Part shown: positions 27,657 to 51,384 of the stretch, in pieces
How positions within the stretch are numbered: position 1 is the stretch's first letter
Layout: each line of letters begins with the position of its first letter
Notes under the pieces: model-generated
Database searches by the model: none
What the model was told of the DNA's origin: nothing
Seen by the model: only the letters and a program-made list of their open reading frames with translations
Translations under genes and position numbers: made by a program
Virus record (IMG/VR): IMGVR_UViG_3300045988_134537
Reading direction: 5' to 3' (one strand)
Source of the DNA: a virus
DNA length: 64,000 nt

Positions 27657-28259
27657 ATGAGACTAACAGTAGAAGAAAACGAATACCTGATAAGTAAGTT
27701 CCTTTTGGTTCTTACTGAGTTTGCAGGGGATGAAAGAGAGATGTTTTTAATCAACTCCATACATGATAAGGCGGTGGCGGATATGAATTATCGTCTTCCG
27801 TCTTTAATAAGCAGAGAACGTAAAAGACGAGTTATTGAGCTCCTTAAAGAAGGAACCAGAATAATCAAGGACTTTTCCGGCTATGCTGGTGATATGGGTA
27901 TGATTAACGAATACGATCGTCTAAAGAAAGAAATAGGAACCGTCCAAGACCAGCTTGGTGACGTAGAAGGTCAACTTCGGGCAGCAGGAGAAGTTATTAA
28001 AAAAGAACTTGATATGATTGCTGACCGAATCAAAGAAGATCTTCTTGATCGAGAACTGGCTAAAAGTAATGCCGAGGCTGAAAGAAAAGCCAAAGTAGAT
28101 CCGAGATACGAAGTAGCTTTAGGTGATTACAAGGAGATGCTGGAAGTGATTTTTACAACCAGAAACAAGTATTCTACGGTAGATTCTGTACATGACGATC
28201 TTCGACAGTCGGTATCTACCGGTAGAAATTCGATTATTAAAGAAGGGTACAACAGTTAA
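27657..28259 (+). CDS. hypothetical coiled-coil protein (200 aa)
   Basis: Track ORF. Confidence 0.55.
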   Translation: MRLTVEENEYLISKFLLVLTEFAGDEREMFLINSIHDKAVADMNYRLPSLISRERKRRVIELLKEGTRIIKDFSGYAGDMGMINEYDRLKKEIGTVQDQLGDVEGQLRAAGEVIKKELDMIADRIKEDLLDRELAKSNAEAERKAKVDPRYEVALGDYKEMLEVIFTTRNKYSTVDSVHDDLRQSVSTGRNSIIKEGYNS

Positions 28260-28474: not shown

Positions 28475-29188
28475 ATGTACATCAATTTCAGACAACTTGC
28501 AGCATCAGACATGACTCCTAATGATCTTGCTAATCTTCTTGCCATAAGACAGAAGGATACGGTTATGATCGAAGCCATGCCGGAAGAAGATGCTGGGAGG
28601 TATATAGATCTTGGCCTGGTTGAGAAATTAAAATCAGGCGTGATGAGATTGACCAACAAAGGAACGTCTTTTGTGAATTATATAGAGACACCGGAAATGA
28701 CAGACGAGGTTCTGGAAACGTTGAAGATTATGATAGGAATGTACGAATCGTATTCAAAAGACATAGGTGTCAGCAGAAAAGAAGCGGAATCCAGATTGTG
28801 TTGGTTTATGGGTAACACCTCATTCAAGAAAGAGGTCATACTTCAGGTAACGGAATCTTATATAGCAGAGTCAGGAGATTATACAATGAGCTTATGTAAC
28901 TTCATATGGAAACCGCCTTCTCAGGCTTTTTCAGTTCATATGAACCTTAAAAATTCAAAGCTCTTTGACTTAATAGCTGAAAAATTTAAGATCGCTACCG
29001 AGCCTTATTTGGAGTCTAAGAAGAATAAGGAAATGGATTGGTTGTTTGCCGTATCTAAATTGCCTACGCCGCCGGCTAAAGGCAATCCGGATTATTTGTT
29101 TACCGGAAGTTCTGAAACAGACAAAGAGCGATTGAAAAACATAAAAACGTATTTATTTAACAAAATTAGAAAGCAATGGAAAAAGTAA
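28475..29188 (+). CDS. hypothetical protein (237 aa), immediately upstream of the ACP gene
   Basis: Track ORF. Confidence 0.6.
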   Translation: MYINFRQLAASDMTPNDLANLLAIRQKDTVMIEAMPEEDAGRYIDLGLVEKLKSGVMRLTNKGTSFVNYIETPEMTDEVLETLKIMIGMYESYSKDIGVSRKEAESRLCWFMGNTSFKKEVILQVTESYIAESGDYTMSLCNFIWKPPSQAFSVHMNLKNSKLFDLIAEKFKIATEPYLESKKNKEMDWLFAVSKLPTPPAKGNPDYLFTGSSETDKERLKNIKTYLFNKIRKQWKK

Positions 29189-29427
29189 GAATCAGAAAGA
29201 TAATAGAGGATATAATTATTACTCAGTTTCTTAATTCGGAAATAGATATAGTTCATGAAGAAGATGTGACGTTTAAAGAACTTGGATTAGATTCTGTTGA
29301 TCAAATTGAACTGGAAGTGATGGTGGAACAAAAATTCAATATTGTTATTATTGATTATGATATGGAGACCATCAAAGATATGACTGATCTTGTTTACAAA
29401 ATAATAACAGAAGGGTATGGGAAGTGA
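29176..29427 (+). CDS. acyl carrier protein-like (83 aa) with phosphopantetheine-attachment motif LGLDSVDQIEL
   Basis: Alignable along its length to bacterial AcpP (KKII ... F.EDLGxDSxDxVELxMxxExxF ... I). Confidence 0.75.
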   Translation: MEKVRIRKIIEDIIITQFLNSEIDIVHEEDVTFKELGLDSVDQIELEVMVEQKFNIVIIDYDMETIKDMTDLVYKIITEGYGK

Positions 29428-29911
29428 CATAATTTTATGCATGGCTTTAATAGCGTCATTTGCTTTTGTTATACAGTTTTTGTTGTCGATATTAGGATCT
29501 GATCTGGATACGGATATTGACATTGACAGTGCTTCTGATTTAAGTATGTCTTTGTCGGACATTATATCATTCAAGGGCATAACACATTTTATTCTTGGAT
29601 ATAGCTGGACTACCTACTTTTCGGGTTCCCATTTAGTAGGGGTTGTGATAGGGTCGTTTTTCTTTATCGTTTTGTTTTACGTATATAAGTTACTTCTTAA
29701 GTTAAAGCAAGAAATGGTGTACGAATGTCCGGAAGATTTAAACGGAAGAGAAGTGGAGATAGTATTTAGATCAGGGAAGAATCATTATATGGTAAATATT
29801 TCGAAAAATGGAAGACAGGAGCAAATGAGATTAAGATGCTTGTCTGGAAAAACTTACAAAAACGGTGACAAGGTGAATATAAAATACGAAGAAGGAGAAC
29901 TAAGTATCTAA
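29417..29911 (+). CDS. NfeD-like (YqiJ/YuaF-type) membrane protein: N-terminal TM helices + C-terminal OB-fold beta-barrel (GDKVNIKYEEGELSI)
   Basis: Architecture and C-terminal motif; gene sits immediately upstream of an SPFH/flotillin gene as in yqiJ-yqiK / yuaF-floT operons. Confidence 0.6.
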   Translation: MGSDIILCMALIASFAFVIQFLLSILGSDLDTDIDIDSASDLSMSLSDIISFKGITHFILGYSWTTYFSGSHLVGVVIGSFFFIVLFYVYKLLLKLKQEMVYECPEDLNGREVEIVFRSGKNHYMVNISKNGRQEQMRLRCLSGKTYKNGDKVNIKYEEGELSI

Positions 29912-29943
29912 TTTTTTTTATCAACAATTAAATTTTAAAAGTT

Positions 29944-31644
29944 ATGACAACAATCATGTACGTGTCAGCTATCTTAGCTGTAGTGATTATTTTGACAATC
30001 ATCGGAGTCTTATCAAGGTATCGTAGATGTAAGCCTAATCAGGTCTTGGTCGTTTATGGTAAGACAGGTGGGGAAAAGAAGTCGGCAAAATTATATCATG
30101 GTGGAGCGGCATTCGTCTTGCCTATTATTCAAAGCTATGATATTTTGTCTATGGAGCCTATGCAAATAGATTGTAGGCTCACCGGTGCTTTGTCGTCTCA
30201 AAATATCAGAGTGGATGTACCTACTACTATTACAGTAGCAATCAGCACAAATCCTGAAATTATGCAGAATGCAGCAGAAAGGCTTTTGGGGATGGATACT
30301 GAATCTACTGAAAATCTTATTACGGATATTGTTTATGGCCAAATGCGTTTGATCATTGCTGAAATGACGATTGAAAAACTTAATTCTGACAGGGATGAGT
30401 TTTTGGATAAGGCAAGAAAAAACATTGATAACGAACTTAATAAGTTAGGCCTTTACCTCCTAAATATCAACATCAGTGACATCAGAGACGAAGCCGGCTA
30501 TATCATGAATCTTGGCAAAGAAGCTGAAAGTAAGGCCCTGAACGAAGCACAGGCTAATATCGAAGAACAGGAAAAGCTGGGTGCTATTAAGATTGCTGTA
30601 CAGCAGAAGGAGAAAGAAACGGCTGTGGCTAATACCAAAAAAGAACAAGAGATTCAAATTGCTTGTACTGAAAAAGAAAAGGAAACGATAGTAGCTGAAA
30701 CGAAGAAAGAAAAAGAAATAGCCTTGGCTTTAACCGATAAAGAGAAACAGATCGGCGTAGCTCAAGCAGATAGAGACAGGGCTGCGGTTATCGCAAAAAC
30801 TTTAACCGACAAGGAATCGGCGATTGTAAGATCTAAGGCAGAACTTGAAGTAAATAAAGCCGAGGCTGAAAGGATGGAAGAAGTCGGAAAGAATAAGGCT
30901 GAAGCTGACAAGGAAGCAGCTATAGCAATACAAGACTCTGAAGCTCAGATTAAGAAGGCTGAGGCTGAGAAAAATGCGTCTATAGGATACAACAATGCCC
31001 AGAAGGAGGTTGCTGTGTCAGTATCAGAACTACAGATTATCAAAGCTCAATCAGAAAAGAAGGCCGGAGAAGAAAAAGTTAAATCGGAAGCGGCTGTAAA
31101 AACGGCAAAAGAGCTTGCTGATAAAGAAGTGGAAGAAGCTAAGGCTAAGAAAGTTCAGGCTGCGCTTAAGGCTGAAAAGATTGTGCCGGCTGAAACCCAG
31201 AAGGAAGAGGCTATCTTACAAGCTGATGCCGAGGCCGAGAAGATCAAACGCCGGGCTGAGGCTGAGGCAGCAGCACATTTGGCAAAAGCTGAGGCAGAGG
31301 CAAAAGCTATTCAGATGAAGCTGGAGGCAGAAGCCGAAGGTAAGAAAAAGTCGTTAATGGCAGAAGCCGACGGATTTAAGGCTATGGTGGAAGCAGCAGA
31401 ATCCAATCCCCAGATCGCCATCCAGTACAAGATGGTTAATCAGTGGAAAGAAATTGCTGGAGAACAGGTTAAAGCATTTGAGCACATTAACCTCGGAAAT
31501 ATCACGGTATTTGACGGCGGTCAGAACAGTACCGGTAATTTCCTTAACAATGTTGTCAAGACCGTCGCTCCGGCATTGGGAGTCATCGATCAGCTTCCGA
31601 TTGCAGATACTTTAAAGAAATTAAAAGGAGATGACAAAAAATAA
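29944..31644 (+). CDS. flotillin-like SPFH (band-7) domain protein, YqiK/FloT-type: N-terminal TM helix, SPFH domain, long Ala/Glu/Lys-rich coiled coil
   Basis: Collinear resemblance to E. coli YqiK / B. subtilis FloT (TM, then ILSMEPMQIDCRL, IRVDVPTTITVAIS, GYIMNLGKEAESKAL, then EA-repeat coiled coil). Confidence 0.8.
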   Translation: MTTIMYVSAILAVVIILTIIGVLSRYRRCKPNQVLVVYGKTGGEKKSAKLYHGGAAFVLPIIQSYDILSMEPMQIDCRLTGALSSQNIRVDVPTTITVAISTNPEIMQNAAERLLGMDTESTENLITDIVYGQMRLIIAEMTIEKLNSDRDEFLDKARKNIDNELNKLGLYLLNINISDIRDEAGYIMNLGKEAESKALNEAQANIEEQEKLGAIKIAVQQKEKETAVANTKKEQEIQIACTEKEKETIVAETKKEKEIALALTDKEKQIGVAQADRDRAAVIAKTLTDKESAIVRSKAELEVNKAEAERMEEVGKNKAEADKEAAIAIQDSEAQIKKAEAEKNASIGYNNAQKEVAVSVSELQIIKAQSEKKAGEEKVKSEAAVKTAKELADKEVEEAKAKKVQAALKAEKIVPAETQKEEAILQADAEAEKIKRRAEAEAAAHLAKAEAEAKAIQMKLEAEAEGKKKSLMAEADGFKAMVEAAESNPQIAIQYKMVNQWKEIAGEQVKAFEHINLGNITVFDGGQNSTGNFLNNVVKTVAPALGVIDQLPIADTLKKLKGDDKK

Positions 31645-31807
31645 ATACAATGGCCCAAGGTTACACTTGGGCCTAATTGAAGAAGCAAAAGCAGCATTTA
31701 TAGATTTCATGCCAGCAGGAATAGTGATTTTTAGTGCTTTACTAATTACGATATTTTTAACATGGATTTTGGACAAGATTTAGAACCAGAAGAACTGACC
31801 AAGCATT

Positions 31808-32167
31808 ATGATCAGTGTTATGGAATTGATTTTGAAACAGAAGAAGAGGAGGATGAAGAGTATGACTGATGAGGAATTTGTATTGGATAATAAGAAAAAG
31901 GTTGTTGTAAGAAAAAGAATATCTTATTTAAACAAAGGAGATAAAGTATGGATTGTGTCTTCCGACGGGTATCTGCTGCACACGGACGTAGTTAGAGCCG
32001 AACGCGGACGGTCTTATGTGGATATAGACGGGATTCTGTATTGGAAGCGAGGATTAGATGGTAAGCATCGTAATCGTAATAACTACATGCAGTTTGCCAT
32101 GACACCAGAAGACGGTAAGAAGTATGTCGTATATTACCCGGAAGGATTTAAAGACAATGACTTATGA
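31808..32167 (+). CDS. hypothetical protein (119 aa)
   Basis: Track ORF. Confidence 0.5.
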   Translation: MISVMELILKQKKRRMKSMTDEEFVLDNKKKVVVRKRISYLNKGDKVWIVSSDGYLLHTDVVRAERGRSYVDIDGILYWKRGLDGKHRNRNNYMQFAMTPEDGKKYVVYYPEGFKDNDL

Positions 32168-33183
32168 TGGTCCCGGAAACACATTTGCTATATAAGGAGT
32201 TTAATGGTGTGAAACGTCTTGCCATATCTTATTCCCAGATAGATACGTTTCTTACTTGTCCAATGAAATGGTATAAGACTTACGTAGAGGGCAAAAGGTC
32301 TACAGAAAAACAAGAAGCTACGTCTTATGGTACGGTTATTCATAAGACACTGGAATACTTCTTCAAGAACGGAAGGCAGCCTTCTGGCAAAGACCTTGGA
32401 GAAGCAATAAGTTACTATTCCTATCAAGAAGACATACCTTGGCAATCACCGGAAAATATGATGATAGCCATGAAACAATCCGGGGAGCTTCTTGCTTGGA
32501 TTGTGGATCTGTTTAAAAAAGATGGGAATAGATTTATGATAGCTGATAGTGATCTTAATCCTTGTGAGAAACTTATCAGACATGGCGTTATAGTTGGAGT
32601 CGAAGAAGATTTTGTGCTGCCGTACCGTCTTCCTAAGCCAGTTGACATAAATGGGGTAATTCATACCCATGTGTACATAGTAGGATCAGTAGACCTTCAT
32701 CTGGCTATAAAGAGCAAGAACGTAATTCACCATTATGTCATAGATTGGAAATCAGGGAATAAGGTTTTTGATTCTAAGAAGTTGGAAACGAATTTACAGC
32801 ATCCTATATATTCGTTTTACATCTATAGAAAATATGGTGGGGTTCTACCAGATATGAACATCTATTTCTTTACCAGAACCAGGCAGTACCAAAAGGTTAA
32901 GGTGGATGAAGAACGTAAAACAAAATCTATAGAGATGCTAAATGACACTTTATCTAAAATGTATGATTTTGAAGATAATAGTGTAAAAACATTTCAGGCA
33001 TACATCCAGGGGGCAGAAGGAGCCAGATATAGCAAGCGGCGTGCCACCCTAAGCCAGCCTGTTTCGCAAAACAAGCTACCCTGCCCGTCGGCGCTGTGTT
33101 ATTATTGTGACTTTGGATTACATAACAAAAACGAATGCCCTTTCTCTTCAGATTGGGATCCGTCTAAAAAGATAAAACGATGA
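32164..33183 (+). CDS. PD-(D/E)XK nuclease of the Cas4/RecB family with C-terminal Cys cluster (probable Fe-S)
   Basis: N-terminal Cys (TCPMKWY), motif I GTVIHKTLE, D (GSVDLH), IDWK, QHPIY (QhxxY), C-terminal CPSALCYYC...C. Confidence 0.7.
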   Translation: MMVPETHLLYKEFNGVKRLAISYSQIDTFLTCPMKWYKTYVEGKRSTEKQEATSYGTVIHKTLEYFFKNGRQPSGKDLGEAISYYSYQEDIPWQSPENMMIAMKQSGELLAWIVDLFKKDGNRFMIADSDLNPCEKLIRHGVIVGVEEDFVLPYRLPKPVDINGVIHTHVYIVGSVDLHLAIKSKNVIHHYVIDWKSGNKVFDSKKLETNLQHPIYSFYIYRKYGGVLPDMNIYFFTRTRQYQKVKVDEERKTKSIEMLNDTLSKMYDFEDNSVKTFQAYIQGAEGARYSKRRATLSQPVSQNKLPCPSALCYYCDFGLHNKNECPFSSDWDPSKKIKR

Positions 33184-50751: not shown

Positions 50752-51384
50752 TTATACTTTTTTTATCCTACAATACAAATCCAATAAGAACTCAGCAGAA
50801 AAACCATCCCATGCATTATTCTGCCAAATATCTACTTTGTTAATAAACCAAGACCATGTAGGACCATCATATGAAGAATCAGATGATGATCCCAATCCGA
50901 TTTTCTCCATTTCATTCGCCACATCAGAATAAGGATCTAAATCGACTCCCCTAATCATGTTAATAATATCACCCTTGTCTAATGTAAATTGAAACCGCTC
51001 CTTGTTAGTAAGCGAATCTTGATTCAATTTACCAGTCGCAAGCCATTCTCCATCATGATACAATTCGGCAAGTTTCTTTACCTTATTTTTAAGAAAAGAA
51101 TACTCTTGTATGACTTCTATAAAATCAGCTTCGTTAGCTTTACCTTCTATAAAGATAACGGTTTTGCTTCCAGGTCTATGATCGTCTAAGCTTGCCGGGA
51201 TTCCTAATATCGTCCATCCTTTAAACTCAGCTATCTTAAAACGCATGACATCAAACACCTTATAAAAATCATCACAATCTACAGATTCTATTACCTTAAC
51301 ATCCTCTTCCGTAAATTTACCTCGTATTGAAATAACATGATGACCAGGGCAGCCATCGGTTCCGAAATATGCGATTCTAACCAC
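50752..51384 (-). CDS. hypothetical protein (210 aa)
   Basis: Track ORF. Confidence 0.55.
   Translation of the reverse strand: MVRIAYFGTDGCPGHHVISIRGKFTEEDVKVIESVDCDDFYKVFDVMRFKIAEFKGWTILGIPASLDDHRPGSKTVIFIEGKANEADFIEVIQEYSFLKNKVKKLAELYHDGEWLATGKLNQDSLTNKERFQFTLDKGDIINMIRGVDLDPYSDVANEMEKIGLGSSSDSSYDGPTWSWFINKVDIWQNNAWDGFSAEFLLDLYCRIKKV

Follow-up and report, generated by a model that had tools for sequence, protein, structure and literature searches.

Bacterial operons that combine an NfeD gene with a gene for an SPFH-domain protein are already known, as are host-derived accessory genes in the cargo hotspots of phages. Such operons include yuaF(nfeD2)-floT of Bacillus subtilis and yqiJ-yqiK of Escherichia coli, both only distantly related in sequence to the genes described here. 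A much closer counterpart is found in Bacteroidales (e.g., the 165-amino acid (aa) 'transmembrane protein' BCA48765.1 of Bacteroides thetaiotaomicron and the flotillin beside it), and the closest solved structures are those of the eukaryotic flotillin-1/flotillin-2 cage (9bq2, 9l3g). In this work, we analyzed a stretch of 64,000 nucleotides (nt) from the viral record IMGVR_UViG_3300045988_134537 (hereafter, the window). A first-pass annotation of its sequence had noticed three consecutive + strand genes, for an acyl carrier protein (ACP), a short NfeD-like membrane protein and a flotillin, and had proposed that they form a single membrane module, possibly involved in lipid chemistry together with the 237-aa protein encoded just upstream. 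The three open reading frames (ORFs) were found at 29176-31644, and their identities were upheld by Pfam for the ACP and the flotillin and by remote similarity for the NfeD-like protein. The reading that we favor, with moderate confidence, is that the NfeD-like/flotillin pair was captured from a host and constitutes an accessory membrane scaffold mimicking that of the host, the ACP being an independent passenger. The phage pair shares with the Bacteroidales operon both genes (with 32-43% identity between the NfeD-like proteins), their order, the short gap between them and the domain architecture, and differs from it in lying outside the sampled chromosomal clade, in a more diverged coiled coil, in an extra small transmembrane (TM) ORF and in its polymorphic presence.

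The region between positions 28000 and 33000 of the window was 96.4% identical in nucleotide sequence, over 5 kb, to OR575929, the complete genome of the human gut phage crAssE-Sib (151,256 bp; deposited as 'csAssE-Sib'), whose record contains crAss hallmark genes, e.g., those for muzzle and ring proteins. crAssE-Sib has been placed in the epsilon crAss-like group, in the proposed genus Epsilonunovirus; its predicted hosts are Bacteroidia, a temperate or persistent lifestyle has been discussed as possible, and its genus carries repressor and anti-repressor genes (PMC11054128). By sequence, we assign the window to the same proposed genus, as an epsilon crAss-like phage of crAssE-Sib type. The ORF order on the + strand is p237, ACP, NfeD-like, flotillin, p50, p119 and exonuclease. 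The ACP ORF overlaps both p237 and the NfeD-like ORF by 11-13 nt (start/stop codons), the flotillin gene follows after a gap of 32 nt, and the base composition is unremarkable. OR575929 had an identical arrangement, and so did viral contigs with the same phage flanks, of which well over 100 were independent. Since it recurs in a complete genome and in so many contigs, the segment is neither a chimeric assembly nor host contamination, the two artifacts that had been named as possible refutations of the initial proposal. At the homologous positions, OR575929 is annotated with 'acyl carrier protein', 'transmembrane protein' and 'flotillin family protein', and the terms flotillin, acyl carrier and NfeD do not occur in the crAssE-Sib paper (PMC11054128). 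Because GenBank already labels the ACP and the flotillin, the novelty of the locus is lower than had been assumed. New are the identification of crAssE-Sib's 'transmembrane protein' as the NfeD partner, the Bacteroidales origin, a second phage lineage, the structure of the cargo slot and the combination of constraint with recurrent deletion.

The flotillin gene (29944-31644, + strand) codes for a flotillin-family SPFH protein of 566 aa with an N-terminal hydrophobic anchor, an SPFH domain (residues 30-211), a coiled coil (residues ~212-449) and a Flot domain (residues 450-559); the hydrophobic N-terminus and the Ala/Glu/Lys-rich coiled coil are evident in the translation. Pfam Band_7 (PF01145) scored 89.9 bits for residues 30-211 (cut-off 23.6; positions 4-176 of the 176 in the profile), and Flot (PF15975) matched residues 450-559 with 38 bits (cut-off 27). 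A sequence search of the PDB identified the flotillin-1/2 complexes 9bq2 and 9l3g as the nearest solved relatives (residues 28-305, E 1.7e-23 to 3e-18); all chains matched were flotillin-1/2, and none was HflK/C or stomatin at E<=1e-3. The NCBIfam FloT equivalog NF058507 scored 144.8 bits against a cut-off of 700. From these matches, the protein is classified as a member of the flotillin family and not as a FloT ortholog. By analogy with 9bq2 and 9l3g, it would probably form an oligomeric membrane cage, although those complexes are hetero-oligomers of two paralogs with lipidation and hairpin anchors, whereas the phage protein comes from a single gene, has a hydrophobic helix at its N-terminus and is paired with an NfeD-like protein. 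The size of the flotillin among relatives ranged from about 410 to 659 aa. Even close relatives (>=88% identity) varied between about 410 and 595 aa through in-frame insertions and deletions in the Ala/Glu/Lys coiled coil (e.g., 30883>31123), and the wall of the predicted cage would differ in length accordingly. Tandem repeats were considered as the source of this variation and rejected, since just weak imperfect codon-level repeats were present.

The gene directly upstream (29417-29911, + strand) codes for a 164-aa protein with three TM helices (residues 2-25, 52-69 and 72-101 in the predicted model), an acidic loop (D-x-D-x-D) and, at the C-terminus, an OB beta-barrel whose best structural matches, also in the predicted model, were NfeD domains. 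With 164 aa, it is too short to include a ClpP-like protease domain. Its assignment to NfeD was in part confirmed: the OB fold, the TM helices and the position upstream of an SPFH gene agreed with it, but the Pfam NfeD profile (PF01957) matched neither the window protein at E<=0.1 nor, taken singly, ten relatives at E<=1. No significant match in Pfam, PHROGs, NCBIfam or PADLOC was obtained for this protein, nor for p237, p50 and p119. Within the family, Pfam NfeD matched one of 70 members (E 6e-5), and a broader NfeD-like family profile matched YuaF in the correct domain at E 0.46; a profile built from close relatives matched no PDB sequence. Word-index searches recovered close relatives only, and an exhaustive hidden Markov model (HMM) search yielded 406 representatives at E<=1e-3, mostly of 160-180 aa. 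Three databases have independently given family members related names: NCBI 'NfeD family protein [Xylanibacter rodentium]', IMG 'membrane protein implicated in regulation of membrane protease activity' and UniProt, for a viral homolog with 34% identity, 'NfeD-like C-terminal domain-containing protein'. Based on the fold, the independent naming and, most strongly, the position directly upstream of the flotillin gene, the protein is a remote NfeD-like inner-membrane protein of the short type and the operon partner of the flotillin.

This linkage was examined in bacteria by a scan of one genome per species with a nine-sequence NfeD-like alignment, which yielded 80 loci. These contained NfeD-like relatives with 32-41% identity, in Bacteroides, Phocaeicola, Parabacteroides, Prevotella and Leyella, and 79 of the 80 had a flotillin gene ~40 bp downstream, the sole exception being at a contig end. 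Seventy-six of the 79 flotillins shared 62-66% identity (tblastn) with that of the phage along about 540-560 residues. The remaining three (L141, L149 and L152), with about 40% identity, were on phage contigs and not on chromosomes. None of the 80 loci had a homolog of the ACP, p237, p50 or p119. In global alignments, the phage flotillin was 67-69% identical to chromosomal Bacteroidales flotillins and almost equally distant from all sampled genera. The SPFH (79%) and C-terminal (77%) domains were the most host-like, and the coiled coil was the most diverged (48-61%). Neighbor-joining trees of 18 sequences, which are indicative only, were congruent for both genes and placed the window together with its sister clade L251 in one clade just outside the chromosomal Bacteroidales. 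The ratio of NfeD to flotillin divergence in the phage resembled that between bacterial genera. These results fit a single co-capture of both genes from a putative donor of Bacteroidales type, which was not recent, since identity to any host flotillin is only ~68%.

Among 50,697 deposited phage records, eight had a flotillin-like match and only that of crAssE-Sib was close; related epsilon crAss-like phages lack the pair. The initial view that these genes are outside the usual phage and crAss-like repertoire was thus corroborated. The 'flotillin family protein' of Vibrio phage KIT04 is likewise phage-borne, with 29.7% identity to that of the window and unrelated flanks. The three divergent loci of the bacterial scan led to another gut lineage. 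L141, L149 and L152 are contigs of 140-186 kb and low GC content. Their ORFs are short and share a single strand, and their PHROG matches are strong; because of these matches we regard them as phages binned into metagenome-assembled genomes (MAGs). Their flotillin has ~657 aa and is about 42% identical both to that of the window and to Bacteroides flotillins. Fifty-three loci of this lineage, with 58-100% identity, were present in IMG/VR; contigs of 165-193 kb accounted for many of them, and all but one (52 of 53) had an NfeD-like gene 8-81 bp upstream of the flotillin gene. The NfeD-then-SPFH order, initially recognized as that of a bacterial operon, was therefore seen both in the bacterial scan and in this second phage lineage. 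No homolog of its flanking genes (~10 kb) was found anywhere in crAssE-Sib, and at L141, the one locus inspected, no ACP gene was beside the pair. The unrelated flanks of KIT04 and of the L141/L337-L389 group indicate separate acquisitions or old exchanges. The pair is rare among phages overall yet is a recurrent cargo of large gut phages. Some phages of the second lineage (L141, L149, L152 and L337-L389) were binned as 'Clostridium', 'Gastranaerophilales' or 'Bacteroides' MAGs; L141 has a lipoprotein-like 76-aa ORF upstream of the pair, and L366 lacks the NfeD-like gene and the first 57 residues of the flotillin.

Both genes of the pair were under strong constraint. The within-species pooled ratios of nonsynonymous to synonymous polymorphism (pN/pS), calculated against the window, were 0.033 for the flotillin, 0.048 for the exonuclease, 0.062 for the NfeD-like protein and 0.072 for p237. 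Between the window and the L251 clade, the proteins differed by about 17% (flotillin; nonsynonymous divergence, dN, 0.117, with synonymous divergence, dS, saturated) and 37% (NfeD-like). Comparison of window positions 28475-33183 with L006-L085 showed a sharp rise in pS across the block, from 0.06-0.07 in p237 and the ACP to 0.13 in the NfeD-like gene and 0.20 in the flotillin, with 0.18 in the exonuclease. Diverged lineages thus appear to have recombined at the cargo slot or close to it. At the same time, the flotillin gene was repeatedly lost, about 18-25% of near-identical genomes having no intact copy. An intact copy was missing from 14 of 79 ACP-anchored contigs, 19 of 77 p237-anchored contigs and 23 of 103 distinct loci overall, frequencies that are rough, the three samples overlapping and each consisting of the best 80 of a scan. 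Junction mapping showed that the commonest deletions (29912-31756) removed the flotillin gene and most of p50; the endpoints of the others were between 29438 and 31819. At least nine junction types occurred (29438>31284, 29711>31231, 29790>31819, 29913>31819, 29914>31756, 29916>31753, 30022>31819, 30080>31665 and 30633>31649), in addition to the in-frame coiled-coil deletion mentioned above, and the deleted variants came from several source datasets. In public assemblies, many of the 164-aa 'homologs' are in fact fusion ORFs that join the NfeD-like N-terminus to the flotillin C-terminus. The commonest junctions were located in short T runs. Site-specific cassette boundaries were searched for and rejected, since only this T-run microhomology and no long flanking repeats were found; this points to loss of the flotillin gene by microhomology-mediated deletion rather than as a site-specific cassette. 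p237, the ACP and the exonuclease were intact in every deleted variant. Being constrained where present and repeatedly lost, the pair is most likely an accessory fitness factor and not essential.

The pair lies in an interval delimited on the left by p237 (28475-29188, + strand, 237 aa), a conserved backbone gene whose product has an N-terminal MarR-like winged helix, and on the right by p119 (31808-32167, + strand), also of the conserved backbone and with homologs in L251, L246, L334, L333 and L249, and by a PD-(D/E)XK exonuclease gene (32164-33183, + strand; Pfam PDDEXK_1, E 1.8e-20). In the window (100% p237 identity), the ACP, NfeD-like, flotillin, p50 and p119 genes are located between p237 and the exonuclease. 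L251, with 76% p237 identity, has the ACP, NfeD-like and flotillin genes, p52, a 31-aa ORF and the p119-like p95, and L333 (63%) has a p119-like ORF only. L246/L247 (60%) and L334 (58%) have an ACP gene followed by a DNA methylase gene, a p119-like ORF, a 53-aa ORF and two radical-SAM genes. In L249 (57%) there are two different ORFs, of which one includes a p119-like domain, L335 (52%) has no genes between p237 and the exonuclease, and L253 (43%) has two short unrelated ORFs (101 and 51 aa). L248 and L336 (37%) have short unrelated ORFs, no PD-(D/E)XK exonuclease being called in them. Since relatives carry different genes or none at this place, the interval between p237 and the exonuclease is a hypervariable cargo slot. 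The short ORFs following p237 in the distant relatives were considered as divergent ACP or NfeD genes and discarded, lacking HMM support. The DNA (cytosine-5) methylase gene and the two radical-SAM genes after the ACP (L246:6941-9946, L247 and L334:5950-8956) are a possible DNA-modification cassette. Between p50 and p119 (window 31784-31820), variants L166, L177, L179, L215, L233, L234, L241 and L243 are longer by 200-360 bp, their distance from ACP to exonuclease being 3191-3352 nt vs about 2988 nt, a further hotspot of insertion and deletion at the right edge of the slot.

From the identities, host origin, linkage, slot variability, selection and deletions just described, we infer cage assembly, time of expression and benefit as follows. 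In the course of infection, or while the phage is persistently carried, the N-terminal anchor would place the flotillin in the cytoplasmic membrane, and the coiled coil and the C-terminal domain would mediate its oligomerization into an SPFH cage, as in the solved flotillin complexes, with the NfeD-like partner in the membrane beneath it. This complex might supplement or replace the homologous complex of the host, and the organization of the inner membrane would be kept or reshaped during replication. Since the pair is inside the replication block without detectable separate signals, its location suggests co-expression with the replication genes. The retention of a dedicated NfeD partner in each of the two phage lineages favors a self-sufficient complex over simple poisoning of the host complex. 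Membrane homeostasis, phage exclusion, interference with membrane-linked defense and modulation of host flotillin or FtsH may each be the gain. We rank generic support as a membrane scaffold first and a hijack of host complexes third; between them comes a role in conflict, to which the presence/absence polymorphism and the kind of slot involved lend weight.

Several observations count against a scaffold of this kind. The host already has its own pair, so that a second copy has no obvious benefit. Scans for sigma-70 promoters, terminators and Bacteroides-type promoters, which cover Bacteroides and crAss promoters poorly, stayed at chance level and revealed no signal delimiting the block. The pooled pN/pS comparisons are phylogenetically non-independent and the between-clade dS is saturated, the signal nevertheless being large. 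The NfeD-like ORF was intact in all 23 distinct flotillin-less loci, with a pN/pS of 0.096 (diversity that may largely predate the deletions), a hint of either young deletions or a flotillin-independent role, e.g., with the host flotillin. Finally, the frequent loss would be equally consistent with a gene that is costly or that host immunity targets.

Recurrent loss is also the starting point of the next reading, that the pair is a conflict module that excludes superinfecting phages, blocks a membrane-associated host defense or is itself sensed by some host strains. At least nine independent deletions beside strong constraint are what selection fluctuating with the host would be expected to produce, the slot is hypervariable and holds DNA methylase and radical-SAM genes in relatives, the pair was acquired by two unrelated phage lineages, and the phage may persist in its host (PMC11054128). 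However, PADLOC matched none of the proteins, and a condition-dependent housekeeping benefit together with deletion-prone sequence explains the polymorphism equally. Literature searches (phage flotillin; crAss with flotillin or ACP; NfeD or SPFH with phage; Bacteroides flotillin) retrieved nothing relevant, and in particular no link of flotillin or NfeD to phage exclusion or defense. We consider this reading somewhat unlikely; its more specific form, in which the phage NfeD-flotillin cage would be a membrane-level conflict device whose intact and deleted alleles are kept circulating by fluctuating selection, is unlikely.

A third reading, to which we give a small probability, is that the phage flotillin hijacks host complexes, co-assembling with the ~68%-identical host flotillin or caging FtsH in the manner of HflK/C, and thereby alters proteolysis or signaling, e.g., in lysis or persistence. 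There is a precedent in phage lambda, whose CII protein is controlled by HflK/C-FtsH. In favor of this reading, the SPFH and C-terminal oligomerization domains are the parts most similar to the host, the NfeD-like protein of flotillin-less genomes may work with host flotillin, and the genus has repressor and anti-repressor genes. Against this, the protein is of the flotillin type, HflK/C and stomatin being unmatched in the PDB search above, and both lineages retain an NfeD partner of their own. No Pfam, NCBIfam or PHROG match named FtsH or a protease among the ten genes at 26.5-33.2 kb, so that no FtsH-related gene was found nearby.

The remaining question is whether the ACP belongs with the pair. 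The gene (29176-29427, + strand) codes for a divergent ACP of 83 aa, which matched Pfam PP-binding with 26.7 bits (cut-off 20.8; E 6.8e-6) and PHROG 5934 'acyl carrier protein' at E 2e-8. The reported phosphopantetheine serine motif is intact, Ser40 (nt 29293-29295) being present within LGLDSVDQIEL, and its DS motif was invariant in 237 variants of the species of the window. The protein remained below every NCBIfam ACP equivalog cut-off (best 30.3 bits vs cut-offs of 66-146), and no relative was found in any other deposited phage. Its within-species pN/pS of 0.326 indicated weaker constraint than in the neighboring genes. In sister clades, the attachment serine is replaced by aspartate ('FDDLD' vs 'LDSVD'; L246:6675-6938 and L334:5675-5938), and therefore this ACP-like family may not always act as a carrier. 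Phage ACP-like proteins of PHROG 5934 (category 'moron, auxiliary metabolic gene and host takeover') are likewise small acidic PP-binding proteins with the DS motif; the window ACP differs from them in its great divergence, in the serine loss of sister clades and in that partner enzymes were not found. Within the sensitivity of Pfam to divergent enzymes, neither a phosphopantetheinyl transferase (PPTase/ACPS) nor a fatty-acid or lipid enzyme was identified in the ten neighboring genes and 48 other window ORFs of >=100 aa, and neither these nor acyl-loading enzymes are annotated in crAssE-Sib. The PPTase that had been suggested as a check elsewhere in the phage was thus not recognized, and modification of the ACP most likely relies on the host AcpS.

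A single functional membrane/lipid module comprising ACP, NfeD-like protein, flotillin and p237 is very improbable. The genes are contiguous, with the short overlaps noted above, and ACP, NfeD-like and flotillin genes occur together in the species of the window and in the 76% sister clade L251. However, tight spacing is usual across this genome, the 80 bacterial NfeD-flotillin loci lack ACP and p237 homologs, L141 has the pair without an adjoining ACP, and in L246/L247/L334 the ACP accompanies methylase and radical-SAM cargo instead. Natural variants separate the genes as well: every variant with a flotillin deletion has an intact ACP, and the pair persists in one variant that lacks the ACP. 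The lipid chemistry proposed for the upstream protein did not hold either: p237 is a MarR-like winged-helix DNA-binding protein of the conserved replication backbone and does not belong to the membrane module, and its identification as an Sfp-type PPTase, suggested by its size, was rejected, since it is a helical winged-helix protein. The replaced serine and the missing PPTase and lipid enzymes also speak against the module. Because it is absent from the bacterial operons, travels with other cargo in sister phages and is kept after flotillin deletion, the ACP appears to be a separate, independent accessory passenger of the same slot, unconnected with the NfeD-like/flotillin pair. That the pair is a neutral hitchhiker or an artifact, i.e., recently acquired functionless host DNA or a chimeric assembly, is hardly conceivable, since frequent deletion does show that it is dispensable but its pN/pS (0.033-0.062) matches that of essential replication genes, it has been kept across two clades ~17% (flotillin) and ~37% (NfeD-like) apart while being only ~68% identical to the host flotillin, and the same junctions with phage genes are present in well over 100 contigs and a complete genome.

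Downstream of the flotillin gene, the small ORF p50 (31631-31783, + strand) overlaps the flotillin stop codon and codes for a C-terminal TM helix. It travels and is deleted with the flotillin gene, has a positional counterpart in L251 (p52), is absent from the bacterial loci and showed weak constraint (dN/dS 0.58). A perfect 8-bp GC-rich hairpin (GGCCCAAG...CTTGGGCC; window 31652-31673) is located within p50, 8 nt past the flotillin stop codon; it is not followed by a T tract on the + strand and may be an RNA-stability or processing element. The hairpin casts doubt on p50 being a real gene. Elsewhere in the replication block, related phages have TnpB/IS605 OrfB (Cas12f-like) genes inserted at varied sites (L247:1592-2812, L333:7044-8159, L253:10792-11937 and L249:1-687), and the downstream helicase has intein or homing-endonuclease insertions in L247, L249 and L336. 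On the - strand of the window, at ~50755-51384, there was a Pfam Tad2-like match (Thoeris anti-defense 2-like, formerly DUF2829; E 6e-11), which we provisionally assign to an ORF from its coordinates, crAssE-Sib having a DUF2829 protein at the corresponding place.

These results correct the annotation picture of this region, which is a cargo hotspot of epsilon crAss-like genomes with the ACP as unrelated cargo. The interest of the locus resides in a tractable contrast. Bacterial flotillin-NfeD pairs are widespread and their physiological role is poorly defined, and here an abundant group of uncultured gut phages carries a complete pair. Flotillin-plus and flotillin-minus phages that are otherwise near-identical are present in public metagenomes and offer a ready natural contrast for the function of flotillin in Bacteroidales. 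If the conflict reading were true, this would be the first role assigned to flotillin/NfeD in the conflict between phage and host, in a phage group that is very common in the human gut.

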